A DNA stretch of 63,051 nucleotides. It comes from Azospirillaceae bacterium. Lineage in GTDB: Bacteria; Pseudomonadota; Alphaproteobacteria; Azospirillales; Azospirillaceae. A program made the translations under genes and the position numbers. Below are positions 25,155 to 47,075 of this stretch, piece after piece; position 1 is the first letter of the stretch, and each line of letters begins with the position of its first letter. Under the pieces are notes generated by a model that searched no databases, was not told the DNA's origin, and saw nothing but the letters and a program-made list of their open reading frames with translations. The stretch is from assembly GCA_035627915.1 (NCBI GenBank), contig DASPKT010000427.1, forward strand, positions 1 to 63,051. Reading direction: 5' to 3'.

Positions 25155-26513
25155 TCAGAACCGCAGCGTGAACACGGTCCCGCCGCCGTCGGCGTCCGAG
25201 ACGCCGATGGTGCCGCCGTGGGCCAGCATGATCTGGCGGCAGAGCGACAGGCCGACGCCGGAGCCCTCGCGCTTGGTGGTGAAGAAGGGGACGAAGATCT
25301 TGTCGGCGACCTCGGGCGGGATGCCGGGGCCGTTGTCGGCGACCGACAGGATGACGCGGCCGTACTCGTCCAGGTGGGCGGCGACGCGGATGGCGGCGCC
25401 CTCGCGCCCCGCCAGCGCCTCCGCGGCGTTCTTCACCAGGTTGATCAGCACCTGGTCCAGCATGTCGGCGTCGGCCAGCACCTCCAGGCTGGGCGGCAGG
25501 ACCAGCGTGTCCAGCGCCACCCCGCGCTCCGCCAGCGCCGGGCCCATCAGCTTCTCCAGCCGCTCCATCATGTCCTTCAGGCGGAACCGCTCCATCTGCG
25601 GGCGCGGCACCTGGGTGAACTGGCGGTAGCGCTCCACGAAGCGCAGCAGCCCGCCGGCGCGGCGGGTCACCGTGTCCATCGCCTCCGCCACGTCGTTGAG
25701 GTCTTCGGCCAGGTCCTGCCTGTCGGCCAGCCGCTCCCGCAGGTCGCCCAGCAGCGACTGGGCGGTGCGGGCCAGCGAGGAGACGGGGGTCAGCGAGTTC
25801 ATCATCTCGTGCGTCAGCACCCGCACCAGGTCGTGCCAGGCGCGCACCTCCGTCGCCTCCAGCTCGCCCCCGATGTTCTGGAGGGAGACCAGCATGCGCG
25901 ACTCGCCGCCGATGGTCATCTGGGTCGCCTGGACGGTCAGCTGCTGAAGCCCCGGGCCGCCCACCACCTTCACCAGCCGCCGCTCCCCCGGCTTCAGGGT
26001 GCGCAGCGCGTCGGCGACGGTGCCGCCCTCGTCCAGCCGGCGGATCAGGTCCTCGTGCCCCAGCAGCTTGCGCGCGGCGTTGTTCAGCAGCTCCACCCGG
26101 CCGTCGGGGAAGACGGCGGCCAGCGCCACCGGCACGTGCTCCACCAGCACGTTCAGGTAGTCGGCCTGCTGCTCCTTGTCGGCGCGGGTGGCGCGGAACT
26201 TCTCCAGCACGCCGGAGAAGGCGGTGCCCAGCTCGTCGAAGGCGGTGCCGAGGCCCCGCATGGAGAAGCTCTGCTGGAAGTCGGAATGGGCGATGGCGGT
26301 CAGGAAGCGCGACAGCTCCCGGTTCGTCGTCTGCACCACCCGCAAGAGCCCGCCGATCTGAAGCAGCAGCGCCACCGCGACCAGGAACGCCGTCGCCCGG
26401 TACTCGGTGGCGACCAGCAGGATGCCCAGCAGCATGGAGGTGAGCGCCAGCAGCGCCACCCGGATGGTGACGTTCAGCTCGAACCGGCGTGCGCCGACAC
26501 GCTCAAAGCCCAT
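25155..26513 (-). CDS. Sensor histidine kinase with two closely spaced TM helices, a PAS-like region, HisKA and HATPase_c
   Basis: H-box is LTHEMMNSLTPV, N-box is LINLVKNAAEA, and G-boxes are DNGPGI and GSGVGLSL. The N-terminus has TM1 (TIRVALLALTSMLLGILLVA), a loop of only TEYR(A), then TM2 (TAFLVAVALLLQIGGLLRVV). Its start overlaps the regulator stop by 11 nt. Confidence 0.85.
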   Translation of the reverse strand: MGFERVGARRFELNVTIRVALLALTSMLLGILLVATEYRATAFLVAVALLLQIGGLLRVVQTTNRELSRFLTAIAHSDFQQSFSMRGLGTAFDELGTAFSGVLEKFRATRADKEQQADYLNVLVEHVPVALAAVFPDGRVELLNNAARKLLGHEDLIRRLDEGGTVADALRTLKPGERRLVKVVGGPGLQQLTVQATQMTIGGESRMLVSLQNIGGELEATEVRAWHDLVRVLTHEMMNSLTPVSSLARTAQSLLGDLRERLADRQDLAEDLNDVAEAMDTVTRRAGGLLRFVERYRQFTQVPRPQMERFRLKDMMERLEKLMGPALAERGVALDTLVLPPSLEVLADADMLDQVLINLVKNAAEALAGREGAAIRVAAHLDEYGRVILSVADNGPGIPPEVADKIFVPFFTTKREGSGVGLSLCRQIMLAHGGTIGVSDADGGGTVFTLRF

Positions 26514-27921
26514 GCTTTTCCATCCGGCGGTAAAGGGAGGCGCGGGTGATGCCGAGCTCGTCCGCGGTGTGGCTGATGTTGCCGGCGTGCTTCTCCAGCG
26601 CGCGGCGGATCACCTCGCGCTCCACCGCCTCAAGGTCCAGCGTCTTCAGGCTGAGCTCGCCGTCCGCGGCCGGGGCCGCGGCGGGGGCGGCGGCCGGCGC
26701 CGGGGCCGGCTGGCCGCCGGTGGAGGGCAGGGAGAAGTCCTCCGCCTCCAGCACGTCGGCGCCGGACAGGATCATCGCGCGCTCCACCGCGTGGCGCAGC
26801 GCGCGCACGTTGCCGGGCCATCGGTAGCTCATCAGCCGTTGCAGCGCCTCCGCCGAGACGCGCTTGCGCGGCATGTTGTACTTGCGGGCGTAGATGCCGA
26901 TGAAATGCTCCAGCAGGGCCGGGATGTCGTCGGGGCGGTCGCGCAGGGGGGGCAGGTTCAGCTCCACCGTGTTGACGCGGTAGAGCAGGTCCTGGCGGAA
27001 CATGTCCTCGCGCTGCAGCTGCTCCACCGGCATGTTGGTGGCGCAGATCAGGCGCACGTCGATGGGGATCGGCTTGTTGCCGCCGACGGGGAGCACCACC
27101 CGCTGCTCCAGCACCGACAGCAGCTTGCTCTGGAGGTAGAGGGGCAGGTTGCCGATCTCGTCCAGGAACAGGGTGCCGCCCTGGGCGGCGACGAAGCGGC
27201 CGATGCGGTCGTCCTTGGCGTCGGTGAAGGCGCCGCGCTTGTGGCCGAACAGCTCGCTCTCGAACAGCGTCTCCGCCACCGCACCCAGGTCGACCGAGAC
27301 GAAGACCTGGTCGGCGCGGCGGGAGCGGCGGTGGATCTCCCGCGCGATGACCTCCTTGCCGGTGCCGTTCTCGCCCAGGATCAGGACGTTGGCGTCGGTG
27401 GGGGCGGCGCGGTCGACCAGGTCCAGCACCCGGCGCATGACCGGGGAGCTTCCCACCAGCGAGGTCGGCGGGCCGTCCAGCGCCGCCGTCAGCTCCTTGT
27501 TGCGGGCCCCCAGGTGCGCCGCCTCGCGCCGGGACGCCGTCAGCTTGATGGCGGACAGCAGCGTCGCCACCAGCCGCTCGTTCTGCCAGGGCTTCAGCAC
27601 GAAGTCGGTGGCGCCCTGCTTCATCGCGTCCACCGCCGTGCCGACGTCGCCGTAGGCGGTGATGAGGATGACCGACAGCGTGGCATCGATCTCCAGCACC
27701 TTCTTCAGCCACTGGAACCCCTCGCGCCCGGTGTTGGCGCCGATGGCGAAGTTCATGTCCAGCAGCACCGCGTCGAAGGCGTTCTCCTTCAGCAGCACCG
27801 GGATGCGGTCGGGGCGGGATTCCGTGTGGACGGCGATGCCCTCTCGCTTCAGCAGCAGGCGGGCGGCGATCAGGATGTCCTCGTCGTCGTCCACCATCAG
27901 GACGCGGCCGGCGGTGGCCAT
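26503..27921 (-). CDS. Sigma-54-dependent response regulator (NtrC-family enhancer-binding protein)
   Basis: Receiver domain (VLMVDDDEDIL...DAVLLDMNF...KP). AAA+ domain with Walker A GENGTGKE, a GAFT loop variant (GHKRGAFTDA) and ESELFGH. C-terminal Fis-type HTH (NISHTADELGITRASLYRRM). Confidence 0.9.
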   Translation of the reverse strand: MATAGRVLMVDDDEDILIAARLLLKREGIAVHTESRPDRIPVLLKENAFDAVLLDMNFAIGANTGREGFQWLKKVLEIDATLSVILITAYGDVGTAVDAMKQGATDFVLKPWQNERLVATLLSAIKLTASRREAAHLGARNKELTAALDGPPTSLVGSSPVMRRVLDLVDRAAPTDANVLILGENGTGKEVIAREIHRRSRRADQVFVSVDLGAVAETLFESELFGHKRGAFTDAKDDRIGRFVAAQGGTLFLDEIGNLPLYLQSKLLSVLEQRVVLPVGGNKPIPIDVRLICATNMPVEQLQREDMFRQDLLYRVNTVELNLPPLRDRPDDIPALLEHFIGIYARKYNMPRKRVSAEALQRLMSYRWPGNVRALRHAVERAMILSGADVLEAEDFSLPSTGGQPAPAPAAAPAAAPAADGELSLKTLDLEAVEREVIRRALEKHAGNISHTADELGITRASLYRRMEKHGL

Positions 27922-27976
27922 GGTCGGTCGTGCTCGTGTCGTGGAAGGGGCGTCGTGGAAAGGGCGTCGGGGGCGG

Positions 27977-28005
27977 TGTCCGGATGCGGACAGGGCAACT
28001 GTCCG
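27977..28005. promoter_or_regulatory. Candidate enhancer (UAS): TGTCCG-GATG-CGGACA palindrome plus an overlapping GGACAG-N5-CTGTCC
   Basis: A 16-bp palindrome lies at 27977-27992, and a third TGTCCG half-site at 28000-28005. It sits ~100 bp upstream of a sigma-54 -24/-12 element. The same 16-mer occurs as its reverse complement at 33428-33443. Confidence 0.55.
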
Positions 28006-28089
28006 ATATCGTACATCTGCACGGAAGCGAACGCATCCATTTTCGGCCGCATCCGGTCAGGAACCCAGGATTTCCGCGGCTTCCCGATC

Positions 28090-28104
28090 TGGCACGCCCC
28101 TTGC
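28090..28104 (+). promoter_or_regulatory. Sigma-54 (-24/-12) promoter TGGCAC-GCCCC-TTGC
   Basis: cTGGCACGccccTTGCc matches YTGGCACG-N4-TTGCW with correct spacing. It lies 48 nt upstream of the small-ORF ATG at 28152 and next to the divergent sigma-54 EBP gene. Confidence 0.7.
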
Positions 28105-28151
28105 CATCAGGGGAACAACGGACCGACACCTTCACTCAAGGGAAGCCAGCC

Positions 28152-28298
28152 ATGACCGACATCTCCATCCAGGCCACCGACACCTTCTCCTTCGGCAGCT
28201 TCCTGCGCGACGTGGTCGCCGAGCTGGCGAACCCGACGCTGGCCGTCGCCGCCGCCTTCGCCTGCGTGACGGTGAAGATGTTCGCCGGCTTCATGTGA
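28152..28298 (+). CDS. Small (48 aa) predicted membrane peptide, unknown family
   Basis: MTDISIQATDTFSFGSFLRDVVAELANPTLAVAAAFACVTVKMFAGFM. AAGGGA lies 9-14 nt upstream of the ATG. G/C third positions are strongly preferred (about 46 of 48 sense codons by eye). The C-terminus is a hydrophobic helix. The gene is the first in a sigma-54 transcript. It is a paralogue-like counterpart of 33561..33713. Confidence 0.5.
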   Translation: MTDISIQATDTFSFGSFLRDVVAELANPTLAVAAAFACVTVKMFAGFM

Positions 28299-28357
28299 TC
28301 GGGGTCGAGTAAAGCCGGCAAACCTCCGGGCGGGGGCCCAGGGCGGGGAGGGAAGAA

Positions 28358-30811
28358 ATGTTCCAGCACTACGCGACCATGGCCTGGCGCAACCTTGCGC
28401 GCCACCGGCTGCACGCCGCGATCAACCTGCTCGGCCTCAGCGTCGGGCTGGCGGCGGCGCTGCTGATCTTCATGTATGTGCGCCACGAACTCTCCTACGA
28501 GCGGCATTTCGCCAATTCCGACCGCATCTACCGCCTGGCGACGGAGCCGCTGGAGCCGGGGCAGGGCGACGACGGGCGCAAGCACGCCCTGTCGCCGCAG
28601 CCGATGGCCGAGCTGCTGATGCAGGCCGCCGACCAGATCGGCATCGAGGCGGCGACCCGGTACGAGTTCGGGACCTTCATCCTGGCGCGGGGCGAGGCGC
28701 GCTTCTTCGAGAAGACCACCTTCGTCCACGCGGACTTCTTCCGCATGTTCGACTTCCCCTTCCGCCACGGTGACCCGGCGACGGCCCTGGCGACGCCGGA
28801 CGGGATGGTGATGTCCCGCGAGCTGGCCCAGAAATACTTCGGCGACGCCGATCCCATCGGCCAGGCCATCCTGGTCAACAACAAGCACCTGTTCCGCGTC
28901 ACCGGCGTGCTGGACGAGCCGCGCGGCCCGTCGGAGCTGGAGGGGGAGCTGTTCGTCTCCACCGCCAACCCGGTCCTGTCGCCGCCGCTGTGGATGAACC
29001 AGAACGGCCCGTCCTTCGTGATGGCGCGGCCCGGCGTCAGCCAGGCGGAGCTGCAGCGCCGCATGGACGGGGCGCTGGAGGGGCTGCTGCCGCAGCAGGC
29101 GGTCGAGGACAACGGCCGCTTCCGCGTCCTGCTGGAGCGGCTGGCCGACACCCACCTGCATTCCGGGCGCTGGGTCTTCATCAACCAGGCCCCGGCCTCC
29201 GCCGACACGGTCTACGCCATGATCGGCATCGGGCTGGCGCTGCTGGCGATGGTCGCCATCAACTACACCAACCTCTCCACCGCGCGGGCCACCCTGCGCG
29301 CAAAGGAGATCGGCCTGCGCAAGGCGCTGGGCGCCGGCCGGGCGCAGCTGATCCGGCAGTTCATCGGCGAGTCGGTGGCGCTGTCGCTGGCCGGCCTGCT
29401 GCTGGCGCTGGTGCTGGTGGAGCTGTCGCAGACGGCCTTCGCCGACCATCTCGGCATCCGCTTCATGGGCTCCCTCGTGGGCGATCCCGTGGCGCTGCTG
29501 GCAGGCCTCGCCCTGGCGCTCGGCCTCGGCCTGCTGGGCGGCGCCTATCCGGCGCTGGTGCTGAGCGGCTTCCGCCCGGCCGCGGTGCTGCGCGCCGCCC
29601 GGGTGAACGTCGGCCCGGCCTCGCGGCTGCGCCAGGTGCTGGTCGTCACCCAGTTCGCCACCGCCGTGGTGCTCGCCATCTCCACCGTCGTCGTCTATGC
29701 CCAGGCCCGCTACGGCGCCACCGCCAACCTGGGCTTCCAGCCGGAGATGCGGGTGGTGCTGTCCGGCCTCGACCGCGAGCCCGTGGTGCAGCGGCGCGAG
29801 GTGCTGCGGGAGGAGATGCTGCGCATCCAAGGCGTCACCGGTGCCGCCACCTCCTGGATCGTGCCGGGCGCCTCGGGCTCCATGGGGCGCGGGCTCAGGC
29901 GGGCCGACCAGTCGCCGGAGGACGACACCAACGTCCAGCTCTTCCGCATCGGGCACGAGTACCTGGACGTGCTGGGCGTGCGCCTGCTGGCCGGCCGCAC
30001 CTTCTCCCGCGAGGTCCCCGCCGACGTGATGCCCCCGGCCAGCCGCGGCCCTGTCACCGGTGCCGTCAACGTGGTCATCAACCGCGAGGCGGTGCGCCGG
30101 CTGGGCTTCGCCTCGCCCGAGGCGGCGCTGGGCCAGCCGCTGGTCTTCGAGGACGACAACCGCGATCCCGTCACGGTCGTCGTGGTCGGGGTCAGCGACA
30201 ACGTCCGCCAGCACAGCGCCCGCAGCGAGATCCGCCCGGCCCTCTACATCGTGGAGCAGGAGGGGGTGTACCCGCAGTCCTTCATGACCCTGACCCTGGA
30301 CGGGCGCGAGCTGGACCGGACGCTTGCCGCCATCGACGCCACCTGGCGCCGCTTCGCCCCCGACCTCCCGGTGCGCCGGCGCTTCCTGGACGACCAGCTG
30401 GAGGCCATGTACCTCCAGGACCGGCGCCTTGCCGGCGTGCTGGCGGGCTTCTCCGGCCTGACCCTGGTCATCGCCTGCCTGGGCCTGTTCGCCCTGGCCG
30501 CCAGCGAGGCGGAGCGGCGGACCAAGGAGATCGGCGTGCGCAAGGTGCTGGGCGCCGGCGTGCCCGCCCTGGTGCGGCTCATGGTGTGGCAGTTCTCCCG
30601 CCCCGTCGCCATCGCCATCCTGATCGCCTGGCCGCTCGCCTGGTGGATGATGGGGAACTGGCTGCAGGGCTTCGTCCACCGCATCCCGCTGGACCCCACC
30701 CTGTTCCTCCTGACCGGGGTGGCTACCCTGTTGGTGGCATGGATGACCGTCGCCGGTCACGCGTTCAAGGTAGCGTCGGCCAGGCCCATCCAGGCCCTCC
30801 GATACGAGTAA
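28358..30811 (+). CDS. ABC transporter permease, duplicated FtsX/MacB-type (permease 1, 817 aa)
   Basis: The N-terminal TM is MFQHYATMAWRNLARHRLHAAINLLGLSVGLAAALLIF. It has two large extracytoplasmic domains, each followed by an FtsX-type 3-TM bundle (...KEIGLRKALGA... and ...KEIGVRKVLGA...). The C-terminus is ...IQALRYE. No ATPase gene lies in its operon. Confidence 0.85.
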   Translation: MFQHYATMAWRNLARHRLHAAINLLGLSVGLAAALLIFMYVRHELSYERHFANSDRIYRLATEPLEPGQGDDGRKHALSPQPMAELLMQAADQIGIEAATRYEFGTFILARGEARFFEKTTFVHADFFRMFDFPFRHGDPATALATPDGMVMSRELAQKYFGDADPIGQAILVNNKHLFRVTGVLDEPRGPSELEGELFVSTANPVLSPPLWMNQNGPSFVMARPGVSQAELQRRMDGALEGLLPQQAVEDNGRFRVLLERLADTHLHSGRWVFINQAPASADTVYAMIGIGLALLAMVAINYTNLSTARATLRAKEIGLRKALGAGRAQLIRQFIGESVALSLAGLLLALVLVELSQTAFADHLGIRFMGSLVGDPVALLAGLALALGLGLLGGAYPALVLSGFRPAAVLRAARVNVGPASRLRQVLVVTQFATAVVLAISTVVVYAQARYGATANLGFQPEMRVVLSGLDREPVVQRREVLREEMLRIQGVTGAATSWIVPGASGSMGRGLRRADQSPEDDTNVQLFRIGHEYLDVLGVRLLAGRTFSREVPADVMPPASRGPVTGAVNVVINREAVRRLGFASPEAALGQPLVFEDDNRDPVTVVVVGVSDNVRQHSARSEIRPALYIVEQEGVYPQSFMTLTLDGRELDRTLAAIDATWRRFAPDLPVRRRFLDDQLEAMYLQDRRLAGVLAGFSGLTLVIACLGLFALAASEAERRTKEIGVRKVLGAGVPALVRLMVWQFSRPVAIAILIAWPLAWWMMGNWLQGFVHRIPLDPTLFLLTGVATLLVAWMTVAGHAFKVASARPIQALRYE

Positions 30812-30842
30812 GGGCTTGCATCCGTTCCCTGCTCGTGACCTG

Positions 30843-30880
30843 GGGCCCGTCCGGACCGCTCTCCGGACGGGCCCGTTTTC
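30843..30880 (+). terminator. Rho-independent terminator
   Basis: GGGCCCGTCCGGA-ccgctc-TCCGGACGGGCCC forms a 13-bp perfect stem and is followed by GTTTTCCTTT. It lies 32 nt after the permease-1 stop. Confidence 0.75.
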
Positions 30881-30995
30881 CTTTGGGTTCTTTGCGGGGG
30901 CGTTCCGGCCATGCCCGCCTCAGCGGCAGTGGGGGGGCGGGGACAGTCCGGCGACAGCATGTGGCCTGAGCGCTCCCGGTCCCGACACTCACCCC

Positions 30996-31134
30996 GTCAT
31001 TCCCGCGGAGGCGGGAATCCAGGCATTCAGCGTGCTATGTCCCTGGGCGGAAAGGCGCCCACGTCACCGCCGGCGCCCTTTGCCCGGGTTGGACAGCAGG
31101 CCGAATACCTGGACCCCGCCTCCGCGGGGGTGAC
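30996..31134. repeat. 139-bp REP/MITE-like element bounded by palindromic modules
   Basis: Left end GTCATTCCCGCGGAGGCGGGAATCCAGG. Right end CCTGGACCCCGCCTCCGCGGGGGTGAC. It is homologous in ends, length and internal ends to 8978..9117. Confidence 0.65.
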
Positions 31135-31169
31135 GGCAAAAGGCGCGGAGGGCGCCCCCGTCCCCTATC

Positions 31170-33335: not shown

Positions 33336-33394
33336 CCTAGCCGAAAGCGCCCGGCGGCTTCACCCGCCTTGTCGGCATGGGAGGGGCGGGCGGC

Positions 33395-33450
33395 TGTCCG
33401 GTTCGGCGGGACCCTGTCCGCCGGCGCTGTCCGCATCCGGACAGTGTCCG
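33395..33450. promoter_or_regulatory. Candidate enhancer (UAS) cluster: TGTCCG-CATC-CGGACA palindrome plus three further TGTCCG half-sites
   Basis: TGTCCG occurs at 33395, 33415, 33428 and 33445. The 16-bp palindrome at 33428-33443 is the exact reverse complement of 27977-27992. It lies ~70 bp upstream of the second sigma-54 promoter. Confidence 0.55.
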
Positions 33451-33475
33451 GAAACGAACGGGGTAGATCGAACGA

Positions 33476-33488
33476 TAAGTTATTGATT
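33476..33488 (-). promoter_or_regulatory. IHF-consensus site (AATCAATAACTTA on the minus strand)
   Basis: Matches WATCAA-N4-TTR exactly. It is located between the UAS cluster and the -24 element, in the only AT-rich patch of this intergenic region. Confidence 0.45.
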
Positions 33489-33505
33489 TTGCACGCGCCG
33501 GACGC

Positions 33506-33520
33506 TGGCACGCCGCTTGC
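33506..33520 (+). promoter_or_regulatory. Sigma-54 (-24/-12) promoter TGGCAC-GCCGC-TTGC
   Basis: cTGGCACGccgcTTGCt lies 41 nt upstream of ATG 33561. It matches the 28089-28105 promoter at 15 of 17 positions. Confidence 0.7.
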
Positions 33521-33560
33521 TGATAATGCGGCGGGTAGAACACAAGAGGGGACGCCCGTC

Positions 33561-33713
33561 ATGACCGAACCGATCACCCGCACGGACACGCCCGCCACGG
33601 AGCGCACCGTCACCGAGCGCATCGAGGATGCGGTCACGTCAGTCAACCCGGACGTCTGGCTCGCCAGCGCCCTCGTGGTGGTGGTGATCCGATGCCTGGG
33701 CGGCCTCGTCTGA
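33561..33713 (+). CDS. Small (50 aa) predicted membrane peptide, unknown family
   Basis: MTEPITRTDTPATERTVTERIEDAVTSVNPDVWLASALVVVVIRCLGGLV. AGAGGGG lies 9 nt upstream of the ATG. It is hidden inside the shadow ORF 31197..33713. Its layout matches the 28152 peptide: MT(D/E) start, acidic/Thr-rich N-half, an NP motif, and a hydrophobic helix containing one Cys. Confidence 0.45.
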   Translation: MTEPITRTDTPATERTVTERIEDAVTSVNPDVWLASALVVVVIRCLGGLV

Positions 33714-33745
33714 CCGTAGTCTCGTCGAGCGGGAACGACATCAAA

Positions 33746-35005
33746 ATGGGTATGGACCGAAAGATCGAGAAGCGCTCGCGCTTCAAGCGCCAGCACCTGA
33801 TCGGCGCCGCCGTCGGCGCGCTGGCCCTGGGGGCGGCGGGCTTCATGGCCGTCGGCGGCTCCGGCGGCAGCACCGTCCGGGTGGCCGAGGAGCGGCTGGT
33901 GACGGCCGAGGTGAAGCAGGGGCAGTTCGAGGACTTCATCCCCGTCCGGGGCGCCGTGGAGCCGCTGAACAGCGTGTTCCTGGACTCGGTCGAGGGCGGC
34001 CGGGTGGAGAAGCGCTTCGCCGAGGCCGGCCAGATGGTCAAGGCCGGCCAGCCCCTGGTGGAGCTGTCCAACACCGACCTGCAGCTGGAGGTCATCGCCC
34101 GCGAGGCGCAGGTGATCGAGCAGCTGAACCAGCTCCGCACGGTGGAGCTGGGCCTCCAGACCAACCGCCTCACCAACAAGCGCGAGCTGGTGGAGGTCGA
34201 GTACAAGCTGGTGCAGCTGAAGCGCGACCTCGACCGCCGCTCGCAGCTGGTGAAGACGAACGCCGTCAGCCAGGCCCAGTTCGAGGACAGCAAGGACGAG
34301 TACGACTACTACCAGCGCCGCCGCGAGGTCCTGCAGGAGAGCATCCGCGTCACCGACGGCATGCGCACCGAGCAGTACGAGCAGCTGAAGGCCGCCACCT
34401 CCAAGCTCCAGGAGAACCTGGAGTACGCGCGCCGCAACCTGGAGAACCTGGTGGTCAAGGCGCCTGTCGACGGCCAGTTGACCCAGCTGGAGGCGGAGAT
34501 CGGCCAGACCATGCAGCGCGGCCAGCGCCTGGGCCGGGTCGACCGCATCGACGGCTTCAAGGTCTCCGCCCAGGTCGACGAGTTCTACCTGCCGCGCCTG
34601 GACGTGGGCCAGACCGCCGAGGTGCAGATGGGCTCGGCCAACACGGTGCTGCGCGTCGCCAAGATCTACCCGCAGGTCCGCGACGGCCAGTTCCGGGTGG
34701 ACCTGGAGTTCGCCGCCGAGCCGCCCAAGGACATCCGCAGCGGCCAGACGCTCCAGATGCGCCTGAAGCTGGGCGCCACCACGTCGGCGCTGCTGATCCC
34801 CAACGGCGCCTTCTTCCAGGACACCGGCGGCGACTGGATCTTCGTCGTCGGCTCCGACGGCAAGTACGCCACCAAGCGCCGCGTCCAGCTCGGCCGCCGC
34901 AACGCCCAGGTCATCGAGGTCAAGGGCGGCCTGGAACCGGGCGAGCGCGTCATCACCTCCGCCTACGGCGACATGGTCCGCATGGACCGCATCCAGCTCA
35001 ACTGA
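33746..35005 (+). CDS. HlyD/MacA-type periplasmic adaptor (membrane fusion protein)
   Basis: N-terminal TM (LIGAAVGALALGAAGFMAV), a lipoyl-like hairpin, a long coiled coil (QLEVIAREAQVIEQLNQLRTVELGLQ...) and a beta-barrel C-domain. The alternative start at 33752 is equally possible. Confidence 0.8.
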   Translation: MGMDRKIEKRSRFKRQHLIGAAVGALALGAAGFMAVGGSGGSTVRVAEERLVTAEVKQGQFEDFIPVRGAVEPLNSVFLDSVEGGRVEKRFAEAGQMVKAGQPLVELSNTDLQLEVIAREAQVIEQLNQLRTVELGLQTNRLTNKRELVEVEYKLVQLKRDLDRRSQLVKTNAVSQAQFEDSKDEYDYYQRRREVLQESIRVTDGMRTEQYEQLKAATSKLQENLEYARRNLENLVVKAPVDGQLTQLEAEIGQTMQRGQRLGRVDRIDGFKVSAQVDEFYLPRLDVGQTAEVQMGSANTVLRVAKIYPQVRDGQFRVDLEFAAEPPKDIRSGQTLQMRLKLGATTSALLIPNGAFFQDTGGDWIFVVGSDGKYATKRRVQLGRRNAQVIEVKGGLEPGERVITSAYGDMVRMDRIQLN

Positions 35006-38219: not shown

Positions 38220-38242
38220 TCCCTGGAAATCGGGAAACACAG

Positions 38243-40717
38243 ATGCTCGGGAACTACCTGACCGTCGCCTTCCGGAACCTGGTCAAGCACCGGCTCTACT
38301 CGGCGATCAACATCTTCGGCCTCGCGGTCGGCCTGGCCGCCGCGATCCTGATCCTGCTCTTCGTCCGCAACGAGCTGAACTACGACGGCTTCCACCGGGA
38401 CGCCGACCGCCTCTACCAGGTGGCGGTGGACGCCGAGATCCCCGGCCGCCCCGCCAACAAGATCTCGCGCACCATGCCGCCGGTCGGGCCGGCCATGAAG
38501 GACTACTTCGCCGAGGTGGAGGACGTCCTGCAGCTGATCCAGCAGAGCTCCGTCGTGCGGCGCGGCGGCGACGTCCAGTTCTCCGAGCAGATGATCAGCA
38601 CGACGCCGAACTTCTTCGACTTCTTCACCTACCGCTTCGTGAAGGGCGACCCGGCGCGGGCGCTGGCGGAGCCCGACTCGGTCGTCCTGACCGAGAGCAC
38701 GGCGCGCAAGTACTTCGGCGACGCCGACGCGCTGGACCAGGTCCTCACCATCGACCAGACCGACGTGCGGGTGACCGCCGTCGTCGCCGACCTGCCGCCC
38801 AACACGCAGCTGGACTTCACCATGCTGCTGAACCGGCAGTCCAAGGCCAGCCGCGCGGCGCCGTCGCTGCTGGAGAGCTGGGGCGCGCTCTGCTGCTTCA
38901 CCTACGTGAAGCTGAAGGAGGGCGCCGACGCCGACCAGGTGCGCGCCAACCTGAAGGCGTTCATGGAGGCGAAGGCCCCGGTCCAGCGCACGCCGACCGG
39001 CACCTTCAGCCCGGCCGAATCCTTCAAGCTGATGCTGCGCAACGTCACCGACGTGCACACCGACCCGATGCTGGGCGACCTGCGGCCGGGCACCAGCCGG
39101 ACGGAGATCTACATCTTCTCCGCCGTGGCGGCCCTGGTCCTGGTCATCGCCAGCATCAACTTCATGAACCTGGCGACCGCCCGCGCCACCCAGCGGGCGC
39201 GCGAGGTCAGCGTCCGCAAGGTGGTGGGCGCCAGCCGCACCCAGATCATCGCCCAGTTCATCGGCGAGTCCGTGCTGCTGACCGTGATCGGGCTGGTGCT
39301 GTCCATCGCGCTTGTGGAGCTGGCGCTGCCCTACTACTCCGACTTCCTGGGCCTGAAGCTCAGCTTCAACTACCTGTCGGACCCGGTCCTGCTGCTGATG
39401 CTGCTGGGGCTGACCCTGGTGGTCGGCACCGCCGGCGGCGCCTATCCCGCCTTCTTCCTGTCCGCCTTCAAGCCGGCGGCGGTGCTGAAGGGGGCGTCCA
39501 GCGGCACCTCGGGCGGCTCCGGCCGGCTGCGCGCGGCGCTGGTGGTGGTGCAGTTCTCCATCTCCATCGCGCTGATGACGGCCACCGCCGTGGTCTACGG
39601 CCAGCTCCTGTTCGCCACCGGCAAGGACCTGGGCTTCGACCGGGAGAACGTGGTCGTGCTGGAAGGCGTGGGCCGCCGCGACGCCCGCGACCGCCGCGAG
39701 GCGCTGATGGAGGCGCTGCGCAAGGACCCGCGCGTCGTCTCGGTGGCGTCGGGCAGCGTCATGCCGGGCGACGGGGACGAGAGCAACACCGGCATCCGCC
39801 TGCCGGGCGGCGACCCCAACGACAACCTGACGCTGCGCAATGACAGCGTGAACTACGACTACTTCCGCACCATGGGCATGCGGCTGGTGGCCGGCCGCGA
39901 CTTCGACCGGGAGCGGGGCGGCGACGCGCTGGTCCGCCCGGCGACGCCGCCGACGGCCGAGAACCCGCAGGTGCTGAAGGGGGCCGCGGTGGTCAACCGC
40001 TCCGCCGTCGCCCGGATGGGCTTCGCCTCGCCGGAGGCGGCGCTGGGCCAGACCTTCCAGGCCGGCGACGCCCCCAACAGCTCGCTGGAGCTGACCATCG
40101 TCGGCGTGCTGGAGGACTTCCACTACCGCTCCGTCACCGACCCGATCGCCGCCGGCTTCTTCTACATCGACCCGGCCGACCAGACGCAGGTGGCGGTGCG
40201 GATCAAGGGCGGCGACGTGCCGGGCGCGCTCTCCTTCGTCGACCGCACCTGGAAGGAGGTCTATCCGGACCTGCCGCTGCGCCGCCAGTTCCTGGACGAG
40301 CGCCTGCAGCAGCTCTACGAGCGCGAGCGCACCACCTCGGAGATGTTCGCCGCCTTCTCCGGCCTCGCCATCGTGATCGCCTGCCTGGGCCTGTTCGGCC
40401 TGGCCTCCTTCACCGCGGAGCGGCGGACCAAGGAGATCGGCCTGCGCAAGGTGCTGGGCGCCAGCGTGTCCGACATCGTGCGGCTGCTGGTCTGGCAGTT
40501 CAGCAAGCCGGTGCTGGTGGCGAACCTGATCGCTTGGCCGATCGCCTGGTACGGCGCGTCGCGCTGGCTGGAGGGCTTCGCCTACCGCATCGACCTCAGC
40601 CCGCTGATCTTCCTGGGCGCAGGATTCGCCGCCCTGCTGATCGCCTGGGCCACGGTCGGCATGCACGCCACCCGGGTGGCGGCGGCGAAGCCGGTGACGG
40701 CCTTGCGCTACGAGTGA
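38243..40717 (+). CDS. ABC transporter permease, duplicated FtsX/MacB-type (permease 3, 824 aa)
   Basis: ATG at 38243 (MLGNYLTVAFRNLVKHRLYSAINIFGLAVG...) lies inside track ORF 36227..40717, whose first 2 kb is a shadow frame. The protein ends ...VTALRYE. Confidence 0.85.
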   Translation: MLGNYLTVAFRNLVKHRLYSAINIFGLAVGLAAAILILLFVRNELNYDGFHRDADRLYQVAVDAEIPGRPANKISRTMPPVGPAMKDYFAEVEDVLQLIQQSSVVRRGGDVQFSEQMISTTPNFFDFFTYRFVKGDPARALAEPDSVVLTESTARKYFGDADALDQVLTIDQTDVRVTAVVADLPPNTQLDFTMLLNRQSKASRAAPSLLESWGALCCFTYVKLKEGADADQVRANLKAFMEAKAPVQRTPTGTFSPAESFKLMLRNVTDVHTDPMLGDLRPGTSRTEIYIFSAVAALVLVIASINFMNLATARATQRAREVSVRKVVGASRTQIIAQFIGESVLLTVIGLVLSIALVELALPYYSDFLGLKLSFNYLSDPVLLLMLLGLTLVVGTAGGAYPAFFLSAFKPAAVLKGASSGTSGGSGRLRAALVVVQFSISIALMTATAVVYGQLLFATGKDLGFDRENVVVLEGVGRRDARDRREALMEALRKDPRVVSVASGSVMPGDGDESNTGIRLPGGDPNDNLTLRNDSVNYDYFRTMGMRLVAGRDFDRERGGDALVRPATPPTAENPQVLKGAAVVNRSAVARMGFASPEAALGQTFQAGDAPNSSLELTIVGVLEDFHYRSVTDPIAAGFFYIDPADQTQVAVRIKGGDVPGALSFVDRTWKEVYPDLPLRRQFLDERLQQLYERERTTSEMFAAFSGLAIVIACLGLFGLASFTAERRTKEIGLRKVLGASVSDIVRLLVWQFSKPVLVANLIAWPIAWYGASRWLEGFAYRIDLSPLIFLGAGFAALLIAWATVGMHATRVAAAKPVTALRYE

Positions 40718-40725
40718 TCCGCAGC

Positions 40726-40761
40726 GGGGCGCCCCTCCCCGGGCAGGGGGAGGGGCGCCCC
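40726..40761 (+). other. GC-rich 15-bp perfect stem-loop between permease genes 3 and 4
   Basis: GGGGCGCCCCTCCCC-gggcag-GGGGAGGGGCGCCCC. No U-tract follows, so it is not called a terminator. Confidence 0.5.
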
Positions 40762-40794
40762 CGATCTCAACCGGCGGCCCGGGGGGCTGGCGCC

Positions 40795-43242
40795 ATGTTC
40801 CTCAACTACCTGACGGTCGCACTCCGCTTTCTGGCCCGGCACAAGCTCTATGCCGCGCTGAACGTCGCCGGCCTCGCCGCCGGCCTGGCGGCCTGCGCCA
40901 TGATCGCCGTCTTCGTCCGCTACGAGCTGAGCTACGACGGCTTCCACGCGAAGGCGGACCGCATCTACCGGGTCAACCGGACCGAACACATCCCCGGCCG
41001 CGCACCCTCGACCTCCGGCGTCACCGCGCTGCCGACGGCGTCGGCCCTGAAGGACGGGCTGCCGGAGGTGGAGGCGGCGGTGCGGGTGCTGCGCTTCGGC
41101 GCCATCATCCGCCAGGGCGGGACCAGCTTCCAGGAACGGGTGGGCCGGGTCGATGCAGACTTCTTCCGCGTCTTCGACTACCGCGTCGTCTCCGGCTCGC
41201 TGGAGGGGGCGCTCGACCGGCCCGGCACCGTCGTCCTGACGGAATCCCGGGCGCGCAAGTATTTCGGCGACGCCGACGCGGTCGGCCGCAGCCTGGAACT
41301 GACCACCGGCCGGGTCTGGCAGGTCGCCGCGGTCGTCGCCGACCCGCCGACCAACTCCTTCCTGGAGAGCTACGGCATGTTCGTGCCGGTGGAGACCAGC
41401 TTCAGCGAGGGCTCCGACAAGCAGTTCCGCGACCGGCTGGAGGCCTGGGACAGCAACTGGGTGAACACCTTCCTGCTGCTGGCGCCCGGCGCCGACCCGG
41501 CCGCCGCGGAGGCGAACATCCCCGAGGTGCTGGCCCGGCGCGTGCCCGACTACCGGCCGCCGGCGGCCGGGCAGGGGCGCGTCACCTTCACCCTCTCCCT
41601 GCAGGCGCTGACCGCCATCCACACCGACCCGCAGGACGGGGAGCCCGGCACGCCGATGTCCGTCATCGTCGGCTTCGTCGGCGTGGGCGCGCTGATCCTG
41701 CTGATCGCCGGCATCAACTTCGTGAACCTCTCCACCGCCCGCGCCTCGCTGCGCGCCCGGGAGGTGGCGGTGCGCAAGACGCTGGGCGCCTCGCGCACGC
41801 GGCTGGTGGCGCAGTTCCTGGGCGAGTCGGTGCTGCTGGCGCTGCTCTCCGGCGTGGTGGCGCTGGCGCTCGTGGAGCTGCTGGCGCCCGCCTTCCTGGA
41901 GGTGCTGGACATGGCGCGGGTGAAGCAGGGCATGCGGCTGTGGGAGCTGGCGCTCTACGGGCTGCCGGTGCTGCTGGCGGTCGGGCTTCTGGCCGGCATC
42001 TACCCCGCCTTCGTCCTGTCCGCCTTCACCCCGGCGGAGGTGATGAAGGGCGGCAAGGCGGCGGGCGGGGCCGGGCGGCTGCGCGCGGCGCTGGTCGTCC
42101 TGCAGTTCGCCATCGCCATCGCGCTGGCGGTCAGCACCCTCGTCATGGTCTCGCAGACCCGCTTCGCCAGCTCCCAGCGCCTGGGCTTCGAGCACGAGAA
42201 CCTGCTGGTGGTCCGGGCCATGCTGCTGGACGAGGTGCGGCCGCGGCGCGACAGCTTCATCGAGGAGGTGCGCCGCCTGCCGGGCGTCGTCTCGGCGGCG
42301 CTGGCCTCCTGGGTCCCGTCCGACTCCTCGGAGCGCACCACCGACTTCCGCCTGCCGGCCGCCCCGCCGGAGGAGACGCTGACCCTGCGCACCGAGCCGG
42401 TGGATTTCGGCTACCTGGAGACGCTCGGCGCCCGGCTGCTGGCCGGCCGCACCTTCGACCGGGCACGCGAGGCCGACGCCATGCCGGAAGGGGCGGAGCG
42501 GAAGGAGGCGGCCGTCGTCGTCACCGCCTCCATGCTGCCCGTCCTGGGCGCCCGCACGCCCGAGGAGGCGGTGGGCCGGACGCTGTACTATCCCCGCGAC
42601 GAGGGCGACCTGACCCTGACGGTCGCGGGCGTGGTGGACGACATCCAGTTCTCCACCGCCCGCAACCCTGTCGTCCCGACCGTCTTCATGATCGACCGCT
42701 CGGCGCTGGGCTCGCTGGTGGTGCGGCTGGCGGCGGGGGCGGGGCCGAACACGCTGGCGGAGATCGACCGCACCTGGCGGACGATGTACCCCGACGTTCC
42801 GGTGCGCCGCACCTTCCTGGAAGACCAGATCCACCGCCTCTACGAAACCGAGGCGCGCCAGGGCGCGGTGCTGGCGGCCTTCGCCGGCCTCGCCATCGTG
42901 ATCGCCTGCCTGGGCCTGTTCGGCCTCGCCTCCTTCACGGCGGAGCGGCGGACCAAGGAGATCGGCCTGCGCAAGGTGCTGGGCGCGCGGGTCGGCGACA
43001 TCGTGCGGCTGCTGGTCTGGCAGTTCAGCAAGCCGGTGCTGCTGGCGAACCTGGTGGCCTGGCCGGCGGCCTGGTTCGCCATGCGGCGCTGGCTGGACGG
43101 CTTCGCCTACAGGATCGAGCTGGACCCGCTGGTCTTCCTGGCGGCCGGCGCCGCCGCCCTTGTGATCGCCTGGACGACCGTGGCCGCGCACGCCGCCCGC
43201 GTCGCCCGCGCCAAGCCCGTCAACGCCCTGCGCTACGAATAG
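40795..43242 (+). CDS. ABC transporter permease, duplicated FtsX/MacB-type (permease 4, 815 aa)
   Basis: ATG at 40795 (MFLNYLTVALRFLARHKLYAALNVAGLAAG...). The protein ends ...VNALRYE. Confidence 0.85.
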   Translation: MFLNYLTVALRFLARHKLYAALNVAGLAAGLAACAMIAVFVRYELSYDGFHAKADRIYRVNRTEHIPGRAPSTSGVTALPTASALKDGLPEVEAAVRVLRFGAIIRQGGTSFQERVGRVDADFFRVFDYRVVSGSLEGALDRPGTVVLTESRARKYFGDADAVGRSLELTTGRVWQVAAVVADPPTNSFLESYGMFVPVETSFSEGSDKQFRDRLEAWDSNWVNTFLLLAPGADPAAAEANIPEVLARRVPDYRPPAAGQGRVTFTLSLQALTAIHTDPQDGEPGTPMSVIVGFVGVGALILLIAGINFVNLSTARASLRAREVAVRKTLGASRTRLVAQFLGESVLLALLSGVVALALVELLAPAFLEVLDMARVKQGMRLWELALYGLPVLLAVGLLAGIYPAFVLSAFTPAEVMKGGKAAGGAGRLRAALVVLQFAIAIALAVSTLVMVSQTRFASSQRLGFEHENLLVVRAMLLDEVRPRRDSFIEEVRRLPGVVSAALASWVPSDSSERTTDFRLPAAPPEETLTLRTEPVDFGYLETLGARLLAGRTFDRAREADAMPEGAERKEAAVVVTASMLPVLGARTPEEAVGRTLYYPRDEGDLTLTVAGVVDDIQFSTARNPVVPTVFMIDRSALGSLVVRLAAGAGPNTLAEIDRTWRTMYPDVPVRRTFLEDQIHRLYETEARQGAVLAAFAGLAIVIACLGLFGLASFTAERRTKEIGLRKVLGARVGDIVRLLVWQFSKPVLLANLVAWPAAWFAMRRWLDGFAYRIELDPLVFLAAGAAALVIAWTTVAAHAARVARAKPVNALRYE

Positions 43243-43274
43243 ACGACGAACAGACGTCCTGGGGGATGCCCGCC

Positions 43275-45749
43275 ATGCTGATCGCGAACTACCTGACAGT
43301 CGCCCTGCGCCAGCTGGCGCGCAACCCGCTCTACTCCGCCATCACGGTGCTGGGGCTGGCCATCGGCCTGGCGAGCTGCCTGCTGATCCTGCTGCACGTC
43401 GAGGACGAGCTGTCCTACGACCGCTGGGCCCCCGACGCCGACCGCGTCTACCGGCTGCACACGACGACGGAGATCCCGGGCCGCTCGCCCTTCCGCACCG
43501 TGCGCTCCGCCGGCTACATGAAGCAGGCCTACCTCGACGATTACGGCGACGTGTTCGAGACGGGCGCCCGCCTCTTCGCCGACAGGGTCACCCTGATCCG
43601 CGACGACGAGCCCTTCTCCCAGACGATCGGGATGGTCGATCCCGCCTTCACCGACATCTTCCCCGTAGAGACGGTGGCGGGCGAGGGGACGGCGGCGCTG
43701 AAGGACCCGACCGCCCTGCTGCTGTCGGAGCGGGCCGCCCGCAAGTACTTCGGCGACGCCGACCCGGTCGGGCGCACGCTGACCCTCTGCTGCGTCGGGA
43801 CCGAGAAGTTCGACTACCGCGTCGCCGGCGTCTTCCGGGACTTCCCGCGCGCCAGCCACCTTGAGCTGGAGGTGCTGGCGCCGATCGACGAGGAGCGGTT
43901 CAAGGCGCTGCCGAACATCTTCCGCACCTGGACCTCGGTCAACGTCTACACCTACTTCAAGCTGCGCCCCGGCGCCGACATCGGGCGGGTCGAGGCCGAC
44001 GTCCCCGCCTTCATCGACCGCCACATCTCCATGAGCAACGCCGCGCAGAAGGCGTCCGACCGGATCCGCCAGCACTTCATGAAGCTGGAGGACATCCGCC
44101 TGCACAGCCGCGCGCAGGCGGGCGACCTCGGCGACATGAAGCCCAGCGGCGACGCCACCCAGGTCTACACGCTGGCGACGGTGGCGGCGCTGATCCTGGT
44201 CATCGGCTGCATCAACTTCACCAACATGGCGGTGGCCCGCTCGCTGCGCCGTGCGCGGGAGGTGGCGGTGCGCAAGGTGCTGGGCGCCGGCCGCCTGCAG
44301 GTGGCGGCGCAGTTCCTGGGCGAGGCGGTGCTGCTGGCCGGCATCTCCATCGTCGCGGCCCTGGTCCTGGCCGAGGTGGCGATGCCCTGGTTCAACGACC
44401 TGATCGGCAAGGAGCTGACGCTGGCCTACGGCGACCCCGGCCTGTGGCTGCGGCTGGCGGCCCTGGTGCTGCTGGTGGGCGTGCTGGGCGGCGCCTACCC
44501 GGCGCTCTACCTCTCCGGCTTCCGCCCGGCCCGCATCCTGAAGGGGGAGCGGCTGCGCGAGAGCGCCGCCGGCGGCGGCATCCGCACTGTCCTGGTCGTG
44601 GTGCAGTTCGCCATCTCCGTCGGGCTGATGACGGTGACGGCGGTGGTGTTCAGCCAGACCCTCTACGTCCGCGGGGCTGAGCTGGGCTTCGACCGCGGCA
44701 ACGTGCTGATCCTGCGCAACGTCGGCGGCAGCGTCCCAGCCGCGACCGCATCGGCCCTGACGGAGGAGGTGCGGCGGCTGCCGCAGGTGGAGGCGGCCGT
44801 GCGCTCCTCCGACGTGCCGACCGACAATGACGAGAACAACACACGCATCTCCGTCTCCGGCGGCGAGCCGGAGGGGCAGGTGATGAACTACATCGGCACC
44901 GACTACGGCTTCTTCGACCTCTACCGCATCCCGGTCCTGGCCGGACGCGGCTTCGATCCCGCGCGCAGCGCCGACCCGCTGGTCCGGCCGGAGAAGGCGG
45001 GCGACCCCTCCACCGGCAGCGTCATCCTGAACGAGTCCGGCGCCCGCCGCCTGGGCTTCCGCAACCCGGCCGACGCCGTGGGCCAGACCGCGACCTTCCA
45101 GCTGTTCCGCACCGGGCCGACGACCGCCACCGTCATCGGCATCGTCCCGGACGTGCGGTTCCGCTCGCTGAAATACGACGTCCAGCCGAGCTTCTACTTC
45201 CACGGCGAGCCCGCCTTCAACGACCTCTCCGTCCGCTTCCGGGGCGACCCGGCCGCGCTGATGGCGGAGATGGAGCGGGTCTGGCGCCGGATGGTCCCCG
45301 ACCGGCCGTTCACGGCCAGCTTCCTGGACGACATGATCGAGGCCCAGTACGCCGACGAGGCGCGCCAGGCCAAGGCCTTCGCCGCCTTCTCCGGCCTCGC
45401 CATCCTGGTGGCGTGCCTGGGCCTCTACGGCCTGTCCTCCTTCGCGGCGGAGCGGCGGACCAAGGAGATCGGCGTGCGCAAGGTGTTCGGCGCCACCGTC
45501 TGGTCCATCGTCCGGCTGCTGGTCTGGCAGTTCACCCGGCCGGTGCTGCTGGCGAACCTCATCGCCTGGCCGCTGGCCTGGATGTTCCTGGCCGACTGGC
45601 TGCAGGGCTTCGACCGGCGCATCGATTTGAGCCCGCTCTACTTCGCCGGGGCGACGCTGGCGGCCCTGTCGGTGGCCTGGGCCACGGTCGCCGGCCACGC
45701 CACCCGGGTGGCGCGGGCCAAGCCGGTGGACGCGCTGCGCTACGAGTGA
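43275..45749 (+). CDS. ABC transporter permease, duplicated FtsX/MacB-type (permease 5, 824 aa)
   Basis: MLIANYLTVALRQLARNPLYSAITVLGLAIG... An alternative ATG at 43266 adds MPA. The protein ends ...VDALRYE. Confidence 0.85.
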   Translation: MLIANYLTVALRQLARNPLYSAITVLGLAIGLASCLLILLHVEDELSYDRWAPDADRVYRLHTTTEIPGRSPFRTVRSAGYMKQAYLDDYGDVFETGARLFADRVTLIRDDEPFSQTIGMVDPAFTDIFPVETVAGEGTAALKDPTALLLSERAARKYFGDADPVGRTLTLCCVGTEKFDYRVAGVFRDFPRASHLELEVLAPIDEERFKALPNIFRTWTSVNVYTYFKLRPGADIGRVEADVPAFIDRHISMSNAAQKASDRIRQHFMKLEDIRLHSRAQAGDLGDMKPSGDATQVYTLATVAALILVIGCINFTNMAVARSLRRAREVAVRKVLGAGRLQVAAQFLGEAVLLAGISIVAALVLAEVAMPWFNDLIGKELTLAYGDPGLWLRLAALVLLVGVLGGAYPALYLSGFRPARILKGERLRESAAGGGIRTVLVVVQFAISVGLMTVTAVVFSQTLYVRGAELGFDRGNVLILRNVGGSVPAATASALTEEVRRLPQVEAAVRSSDVPTDNDENNTRISVSGGEPEGQVMNYIGTDYGFFDLYRIPVLAGRGFDPARSADPLVRPEKAGDPSTGSVILNESGARRLGFRNPADAVGQTATFQLFRTGPTTATVIGIVPDVRFRSLKYDVQPSFYFHGEPAFNDLSVRFRGDPAALMAEMERVWRRMVPDRPFTASFLDDMIEAQYADEARQAKAFAAFSGLAILVACLGLYGLSSFAAERRTKEIGVRKVFGATVWSIVRLLVWQFTRPVLLANLIAWPLAWMFLADWLQGFDRRIDLSPLYFAGATLAALSVAWATVAGHATRVARAKPVDALRYE

Positions 45750-47063: not shown

Positions 47064-47075
47064 GGCTGCGTTCCT

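Follow-up and report, generated by a model that had tools for sequence, protein, structure and literature searches.

Type VII ATP-binding cassette (ABC) systems such as MacAB, LolCDE, FtsEX, BceAB, and YbbAP play a central part in envelope biology and in drug resistance. FtsEX acts on EnvC and BceAB reports to BceS, while DarBCD, PvdRT, and DevBCA export darobactin, pyoverdine, and a glycolipid, respectively. In E. coli, macAB is under the control of PhoPQ; we know of no sigma-54 control of DarBCD. To our knowledge, every type VII example studied so far has one permease unit per engine. The acronym ADOP denotes the 'acidobacterial duplicated orphan permease', where 'orphan' refers to the lack of an adjacent ABC ATPase gene. 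Here, we analyze a stretch of 63,051 nucleotides from an Azospirillaceae bacterium (contig DASPKT010000427.1, the whole of which is referred to as the window). It contains an island with five paralogous duplicated permeases (P1 to P5), a single ABC ATPase, a single MacA-like adaptor, two small open reading frames (ORFs; pep1 and pep2), and a histidine kinase paired with an NtrC-type sigma-54 activator, i.e., an enhancer-binding protein (EBP).

Several published observations come close to parts of this island. E. coli YbbP is built pseudo-symmetrically from one polypeptide, has two Porter/Sabre periplasmic domains, and binds two separate ATPase copies (PMC12646458), and both YbbP and BceB carry two extra linker helices (PMC12646458, PMC5985334). 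A 2018 review of MacB describes homodimeric and heterodimeric arrangements as well as fused ones with ten transmembrane helices (TM); a term search of this review found no direct 8-TM fusion listed (PMC5985334). ADOP paralogs are clustered with other transporter genes in Psychroflexus torquis, where their role is given as 'unknown' (PMC3914696), and many ADOP copies were counted in Dyadobacter (PMC11573002).

We read the island, with moderate confidence, as a tripartite extrusion system of the MacAB-like (type VII ABC) kind, which would be inducible and whose permeases would be interchangeable. Its transport genes are arranged in two operons, pep1-P1 (operon 1) and pep2-adaptor-ATPase-P2-P3-P4-P5 (operon 2), the latter with intergenic gaps of 23 to 77 bp. 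An earlier reading of this DNA, made from the letters alone and called the sequence-only reading below, had listed the features of the island; all of them were confirmed in place, including the presence of only one nucleotide-binding domain (NBD) gene and only one HlyD-type adaptor. The G+C content of the window is about 72-77%, such that long spurious ORFs are common, and genes were therefore picked by codon-position GC and domain matches. A public assembly with the same contig calls the same genes, both small ORFs included.

Each of P1 to P5 reveals two MacB_PCD and two FtsX domains (Pfam); all five are intact and end in ALRYE, in good agreement with the earlier description of five permeases of 815-824 aa with two FtsX modules. 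The shared N-terminal helix and the common ALRYE end, which that description had presented as a trait of the island, are indeed there, but they occur throughout the family in 40 aligned homologs, where ALRYE is nearly invariant. All 60 positions that are invariant in this 40-sequence alignment are kept by P1 to P5, whose G+C content at third codon positions (GC3) of 0.94-0.99 is of the coding type. In pairwise comparison, the five permeases are 37-50% identical overall. Identity amounts to 24-37% in periplasmic domain 1, 28-39% in periplasmic domain 2, and 61-77% in the C-terminal FtsX module, while the cytoplasmic segments following TM2 and TM6 average 65% and 79%. These two segments would carry the coupling helices, as judged from MacB and YbbP. 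The sequence-only reading had proposed divergent periplasmic domains, and the domain-wise identities bear this out. Conserved coupling segments combined with divergent periplasmic domains are expected if all permeases dock to the same ATPase and face different ligands or partners; a sharing of ATPase and adaptor would fit the observed pattern of paralog divergence.

In an hmmscan-type check, the best NCBIfam match of the permeases was ADOP (TIGR03434, E 1e-89 to 1e-102), with scores of 300, 314, 343, 339, and 335 bits for P1 to P5 against a cut-off of 622.3. The second-best family was DarB (at most 140 bits versus 700). MacB (NF007826) reached 27-50 bits versus 966, and YbbP (NF041854) matched P5 alone with 17 bits versus 999. 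Permeases, adaptor, and ATPase lie below the cut-offs of every named family, be it ADOP, DarBCD, MacB, or YbbP. An AF2 model of P3 built on 40 homologs (pLDDT 85, pTM 0.79) shows the order TM1, periplasmic domain 1, TM2-4, a short disordered linker, TM5, periplasmic domain 2, and TM6-8. Judged by this model, each permease of about 820 aa is a pseudo-dimer by itself, in which two MacB-type halves are joined directly into one chain with 8 TM and two periplasmic domains. Foldseek places YbbP at the top (9ge6, E 8e-21), followed by MacB, Spr0694-0695, LolC/E, BceB, and HrtB. YbbP was reached by fold comparison only; a sequence search of the PDB with P3 returned weak matches to MacB, Spr0694-0695, and YtrF. 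Separately, the modeled periplasmic domain of P3 resembles PDB entry 3is6 with TM-scores of 0.73-0.77; this entry is a crystal structure from structural genomics and shows a 'putative permease' domain of Porphyromonas gingivalis. Hence, a solved domain of the permease family exists, which carries no functional annotation.

The adaptor is composed of a TM anchor, a lipoyl domain, a long alpha-hairpin, a beta-barrel, and a membrane-proximal (MP) domain. In its AF2 model (pLDDT 84), the hairpin helices extend over residues 110-170 and 176-233, i.e., about 60 residues per arm, and in structural comparison it matches MacA of MacAB-TolC best (Foldseek 9qgy_G and 5nik_D, TM-score about 0.6). The modeled protein would accordingly be classed with the MacA-type long-hairpin adaptors, and from this fold we infer a trans-envelope pump using a TolC encoded elsewhere. 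The best NCBIfam match is DarC for the adaptor (221 bits versus a cut-off of 450) and DarD for the ATPase (281 bits versus 375), the latter being matched by FtsE, MacB, and LolD, too. The adaptor gene has two candidate ATG starts, 33692 and 33746, the longer form overlapping the end of pep2 by 22 nt. The resulting 437-aa protein was discarded: an exact look-up gave no record of it, and the 419-aa start at 33746 agrees with the public gene call and with homologs.

The regulatory part of the island, as the sequence-only reading had described it, consists of an EBP with a GAFTDA loop and its kinase, both divergent from a sigma-54 promoter, a second, nearly identical promoter 5.4 kb away, and the same TGTCCG-N4-CGGACA palindrome upstream of both. 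Coordinates, Pfam matches, and motif scans support this description throughout. The pattern TGGCAY-N5-TTGC has exactly two matches in the window, at 28090 and 33506, both on the plus strand and 5416 bp apart; 0.14 matches are expected in shuffled sequence, and two or more were obtained in 0 of 100 shuffles. The predicted promoters lie about 45-60 bp ahead of the small ORFs. The palindrome, with at most one mismatch allowed, is found at 27977, 28000 (one mismatch), and 33428 and nowhere else in the window (0.22 expected), and all three matches are located within 120 bp upstream of the two promoters. With a -24 GG/-12 GC promoter, upstream sites, and an adjacent EBP with an AAA+ domain, the island has the predicted layout of a sigma-54/EBP regulon. 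The palindrome formally fits TGT-N10-ACA, the pattern known for NifA sites; cross-talk with NifA is conceivable in diazotrophic Azospirillaceae.

The activator combines a REC domain, an AAA+ domain with the GAFTDA loop, and a Fis-type helix-turn-helix (HTH), and does not reach the cut-off of any named NCBIfam EBP family. Its orthologs (n=61) carry GAFTDA in 43 cases, GSFTDA in 4, and the canonical GAFTGA in 14. The kinase starts with two TM helices separated by a loop of about 5-10 residues, followed by PAS and HATPase_c domains. Of 58 orthologs, 49 show this two-TM, short-loop topology, with at most 15 and mostly 0-4 residues in the loop. Two TM helices, a minimal extracytoplasmic loop, and linkage to a type VII ABC transporter characterize Bce-type kinases, and all three are present here. 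Speculatively, and by analogy with BceS, the kinase probably receives its signal inside the membrane or by way of the transporter. The sequence-only reading had called the circuit envelope-signal-responsive; the kinase has no periplasmic domain, and this description is a supposition. The same reading had seen no regulator of another type and had overlooked a hybrid histidine kinase/receiver between the two operons. This protein has an N-terminal region of about 250 residues between two hydrophobic segments, which gave no Pfam family match. The locus most closely related to ours (L003) has a 193-aa receiver-only ORF (8697-9278) where the hybrid kinase would sit. It was therefore treated as non-core, and probably lies outside the core system.

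Homologs of the adaptor number in the thousands, the nearest ones occurring in Azospirillaceae. Scanning one genome per species for adaptor relatives resulted in 348 loci, 80 of which were fetched with 10-kb flanks. Among the mapped loci, the order adaptor-ATPase-permease is essentially universal, and of the 71 loci whose upstream DNA was long enough, 51 have the kinase and activator genes in divergent orientation at most 1.3 kb from the adaptor gene. For 60 loci, 10 kb of downstream DNA were available. The permease array fills the fetched DNA in 32 of these, 31 of which show at least four permeases; the other 28 loci have two or three permeases (13), one (12), or none (3). Four or more permeases are the commonest state among related loci, and Kordiimonas marina has exactly four. 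Carriers of the cassette were found in Azospirillaceae, Kordiimonadales, Emcibacter, Iodidimonas, sphingomonad metagenome-assembled genomes, Thalassotalea, and Bowmanella, and furthermore in Woeseiaceae, Lysobacterales, Myxococcota, and Bdellovibrionales. Pseudoalteromonas and the Bacteroidota genus Hymenobacter have copies on chromids or plasmids. Overall, the cassette is spread over Alpha- and Gammaproteobacteria, Myxococcota, Bdellovibrionales, and Bacteroidota, and its hosts include soil, rhizosphere, marine, and gut-associated lineages.

The regulatory sites show a similar distribution. About three quarters of the listed loci have a strict sigma-54 pattern upstream of the adaptor gene, and the palindrome (at most two mismatches) was detected in 72 of 82 loci, a count that takes in two copies of the window's own locus, versus a background of 0.09 per 600 bp. 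Typically, there are two to three palindromes per locus with a spacing of 17 or 21 bp. The predicted sigma-54 promoter and the TGTCCG-type sites travel with the cassette across phyla. Clustering of 1499 flanking ORFs did not reveal any conserved neighbor family (TolC, enzymes, substrates), but lineage-specific synteny only.

A nearest-neighbor analysis of 156 permeases relates the paralogs of the island to those of other genomes. P3 has its ortholog in the permease that comes first in other Azospirillaceae (59-62% identity), whereas P5 corresponds to the one in second or third place there (54-59%). P4 likewise pairs with a second or third permease (50-52%), and P1 with the L003 copy (72%). The closest relative of P2 is its own paralog P3, with about 50%. 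Permeases with orthologs in other genera indicate that the duplications predate these genera. The sequence-only reading had named a recent, meaningless amplification as the case to be feared, recognizable by an array that is not conserved as a unit in any related genome. This fails on the age of the duplications, and the unit is kept across lineages.

In the extrusion system that we favor, the kinase would phosphorylate the receiver domain of the activator, as judged from NtrC-type systems. The phosphorylated activator would oligomerize on the tandem palindromes, remodel the sigma-54 holoenzyme, and fire both promoters together, such that P1 would be co-expressed with the ATPase and the adaptor that it lacks. 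A dimer of the single ATPase would dock on any of the five permeases, the coupling segments being the most conserved, and its ATP-driven closure would be transmitted to the periplasmic domains in the manner suggested by the structures of MacB, LolCDE, and YbbAP. The MacA-like adaptor would bridge the permease to a TolC-type duct encoded elsewhere, and substrates taken up from the periplasm or from the outer leaflet of the inner membrane would be expelled. The divergent periplasmic domains may give each permease its own substrate range, whereas the small ORFs would be accessories and not part of the core. Most likely, speculative as this is, the system would clear the periplasm or the outer leaflet of toxic compounds that are amphiphilic or envelope-active, with antimicrobial peptides or lipopeptides, detergent-like metabolites, and antibiotics as candidates.

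Several points weigh against this interpretation. Among the main ORFs of the window, Pfam scans revealed no TolC/OEP gene, as had already been noted from the letters, and in related loci no TolC-type gene lies within 10 kb of the cassette. With TolC unlinked, the tripartite state is deduced from the modeled adaptor fold alone. Neither a resistance-type nor a substrate-type neighbor is conserved beside the related cassettes. Expression, complex formation, and substrate are derived from sequence and models, and sigma-54 dependence is predicted from one 63-kb metagenomic contig. Moreover, some of the permeases could work with a further ATPase encoded in the rest of the genome, and the kinase also has a cytoplasmic PAS domain, such that the signal could be intracellular.

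A more far-reaching version, 'one engine, many heads', is put forward as a tentative proposal, which we consider possible but rather doubtful. A single ATPase dimer and a single MacA-like adaptor would be exchanged among complete, pseudo-dimeric permeases, whose differing periplasmic domains would set a combinatorial substrate range; the permeases would constitute the ligand-sensing input of the kinase, and in Azospirillaceae pep1 and pep2 would tune the complex or the kinase. If true, this would be a Gram-negative counterpart of Bce-type flux sensing with a sigma-54 output.

Both small ORFs, in which 'NP' is followed by a 20-residue hydrophobic tail, have no family match in Pfam or NCBIfam; a database search with pep2 returned three proteins, all 'hypothetical'. 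The pep2 family has a variable N-terminus, the core [DE]R[IV]EDAxxSV[NH]PD[LV]WL, and about 15 hydrophobic residues thereafter. Its members are located between promoter and adaptor gene, directly upstream of the latter, in 25 of 25 Azospirillaceae-type loci. Pooled pN/pS of pep2 is 0.63 on the 25-codon core, a value that is uninformative given the saturated GC3, and pep2 is accepted as a real gene on the grounds of motif conservation. Its role as a universal component was rejected, since a hidden Markov model search of six-frame ORFs from 84 loci found members in these 25 loci only; in non-Azospirillaceae lineages, the promoter is too near to the adaptor gene to fit pep2. An ortholog of pep1 exists in L003 only and was not found in the related P1-type operon of Aerophototrophica. 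Likewise, homology of pep1 and pep2 to each other was unsupported in a profile-profile comparison (E = 0.18, probability 0.3%). The hydrophobic C-terminal tails suggest tail-anchored membrane proteins. The sequence-only reading was right in that each promoter is followed by a 48-50 aa peptide gene here, but an operon headed by such a peptide is not a feature of the system; from their distribution, pep1 and pep2 appear to be lineage-specific accessories and not its defining feature.

The small ORFs also bear on the question whether the island is a dedicated exporter of an endogenous product and not a defense pump. The product could be a secreted peptide, for which pep1 and pep2 themselves are possible cases, or else a siderophore, a lipid, a glycolipid, or some other metabolite, with different permeases handling different cargo variants. 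Such a function is suggested by DarC, DarD, and DarB as the best or second-best NCBIfam matches of adaptor, ATPase, and permeases, and by the small ORF at the start of each operon, which resembles darA in the dar operon. However, the Dar scores given above are far under their cut-offs, and most cassette-bearing lineages have no small ORFs. Where present, these end in a membrane-anchor-like hydrophobic tail and show no leader/core organization. Radical-SAM, maturation, or biosynthesis genes are neither present in the island nor conserved beside the cassette. Altogether, we consider export of an endogenous product unlikely.

We assign an equally low probability to permeases that do not export at all, but act on periplasmic partners by mechanotransmission, in the way of FtsEX with EnvC or YbbAP with TesA, or serve the kinase as a receptor panel of ligand sensors. 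The lack of a periplasmic sensing domain in 49 of 58 kinase orthologs is reminiscent of transporter-dependent kinases such as BceS, and a linked TolC gene is missing. In addition, the nearest full-length fold is that of YbbP, which passes substrates to a periplasmic hydrolase (PMC12646458). On the other hand, a MacA-like adaptor with a TolC-docking-type hairpin is encoded directly upstream of the ATPase family-wide and points to a trans-envelope duct, and flanking ORF clustering did not find a conserved periplasmic partner gene beside the cassette. Finally, redundant amplification without division of labor, i.e., one working permease among drifting copies, is suggested by tandem paralogs with generic annotations, but is very improbable in view of five full-length genes with coding-type GC3, the retention of every family-invariant residue in all five, a mutual identity of only 37-50% as opposed to 50-72% to orthologs in other genera, and four or more copies as the commonest state in related genomes.

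In the literature searched, which left most subscription journals outside, we found neither a functional study of the cassette nor a link between a sigma-54 activator and such permeases; a comparative survey of sigma-54 (PMC3162934) does not mention FtsX, HlyD, or efflux. The cassette is real, widely conserved, and built from familiar parts, and it is less singular than the sequence-only reading held. Usually, one adaptor and one ATPase are followed by several alternative permeases, and a conserved sigma-54 circuit goes with them. Its study would give a role to many genes annotated only as 'ABC transporter permease' (ADOP-like proteins), test the sharing of an ABC engine among alternative membrane modules, and show whether transporter-coupled signaling exists outside Firmicutes. 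The conserved predicted binding site provides a handle for regulon prediction in complete genomes.

The features of the island are compiled in Table 1.

Table 1. Genes and predicted regulatory elements of the island, with positions in the window.
Feature	Position	Strand	Evidence or location
Sensor histidine kinase, 452 aa	25155-26513	-	Pfam HATPase_c, PAS_8
NtrC-type sigma-54 activator (EBP), 472 aa	26503-27921	-	Pfam Response_reg, Sigma54_activat 3.8e-63, HTH_8
Upstream activator sites (predicted) TGTCCGgatgCGGACA + TGTCCGatatCGTACA	27977-28015		~75-115 bp upstream of promoter 1; motif scan
Sigma-54 promoter 1 (-24/-12, predicted) TGGCACGCCCCTTGC = TGGCACgccccTTGC	28090-28104	+	Pattern scan
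pep1, 48-aa ORF, hydrophobic C-terminal tail	28152-28298	+	
Permease P1, 817 aa, duplicated MacB_PCD+FtsX, without own ATPase or adaptor	28358-30811	+	
Intrinsic terminator, end of pep1-P1 operon	30843-30874	+	13-bp stem, 11 GC pairs, T-run
Hybrid histidine kinase/receiver, 721 aa	31170-33335	-	Pfam HisKA, HATPase_c, Response_reg
Upstream activator sites (predicted) TGTCCGcatcCGGACA + adjoining TGTCCGgaaaCGAACG	33428-33460		~50-80 bp upstream of promoter 2
Sigma-54 promoter 2 (predicted) TGGCACGCCGCTTGC = TGGCACgccgcTTGC	33506-33520	+	Pattern scan
pep2, 50-aa ORF, conserved core ERIEDAVTSVNPDVWL, then hydrophobic tail	33561-33713	+	
MacA-like periplasmic adaptor, 419 aa	33746-35005	+	Pfam HlyD_3, HlyD_D23
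Single ABC ATPase (NBD), 226 aa	35035-35715	+	Pfam ABC_tran 1.7e-37
Permease P2, 818 aa	35763-38219	+	
Permease P3, 824 aa	38243-40717	+	
Permease P4, 815 aa	40795-43242	+	
Permease P5, 824 aa	43275-45749	+	

The flanks are unrelated to the island, and toxin-antitoxin pairs are located on both sides. Upstream, there is a Gp49/HigB-like protein with an HTH protein (24419-25088, minus strand); downstream, a gene for a pyridoxal phosphate (PLP) enzyme, a pair of a PIN-domain toxin and an 82-aa ORF (46815-47498, minus strand), and Mfd follow. An addiction module is also drawn within the ADOP island of Psychroflexus (PMC3914696).

Some further observations concern the remainder of the window. A DUF2336 gene is encoded at 7502-8776 (plus strand), far from the island, and in Kordiimonas marina two DUF2336 genes directly follow the four-permease array (L085, 20364-22505); this link is possibly a coincidence. 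An ORF of 432 aa (14605-15903, plus strand) shows coding-type GC3 and no Pfam match. It lies in the lowest-GC stretch of the region (0.69), within a cluster of glycosyltransferase, nucleotidyl-transferase, and inositol-phosphate-synthase genes. Tad/Cpa-type pilus assembly genes at 990-6026 (plus strand), encoding a ParA/CpaE-like ATPase, a CpaF-type T2SSE ATPase, and a TadB-type T2SSF protein, look ordinary.

Compared with described systems, the island shares traits with each of them. The claim of the sequence-only reading that one permease per ATPase is normal proved too strong: LolCDE has two permease genes, multi-permease arrays are the rule in the present family, and ADOP clusters are found in Psychroflexus (PMC3914696). 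In LolCDE, as in the island, one ATPase gene serves different permease polypeptides, but LolC and LolE, each with 4 TM, make up the two halves of one heterodimer and are not alternative complete permeases. BceAB-BceRS likewise links a type VII transporter to a two-TM kinase without an extracellular domain; BceB, in contrast, has 10 TM and one extracellular domain, and the regulator is of the OmpR type and not a sigma-54 activator. YbbP differs in its 10 TM with a two-helix linker from the 8 TM of the P3 model, and YbbAP works with a periplasmic hydrolase and lacks an adaptor. At the sequence level, its similarity to the island is negligible, and Pfam scans revealed no thioesterase gene nearby.

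DarBCD has a duplicated FtsX permease, an adaptor, a separate ATPase, and a small ORF at the first position of the operon in common with the island. However, DarBCD has a single permease, while the island encodes neither a radical-SAM maturase nor a precursor-like peptide. With ADOP, the permeases share two tandem MacB_PCD+FtsX units in one protein of about 800 aa, as seen with Pfam and in the AF2 model. They differ in scoring about half of the ADOP cut-off and in their alphaproteobacterial host. Furthermore, they are no orphans, as P2 to P5 are encoded behind ATPase and adaptor and only P1 has no adjacent ATPase.

The likeness to MacAB-TolC extends to all three components, namely a MacB-type periplasmic core with an FtsX 4-TM module, a MacA-like adaptor, and an ATPase of the FtsE/MacB/LolD type. 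In contrast to MacB, in which the NBD is fused to a 4-TM permease that forms a homodimer, the NBD of the island is a separate protein and its permease a fused pseudo-dimer of, as modeled, 8 TM and two different periplasmic domains. Five permease genes stand beside one ATPase and one adaptor, with TolC unlinked, and the control of the island is predicted to be of the sigma-54/NtrC type.

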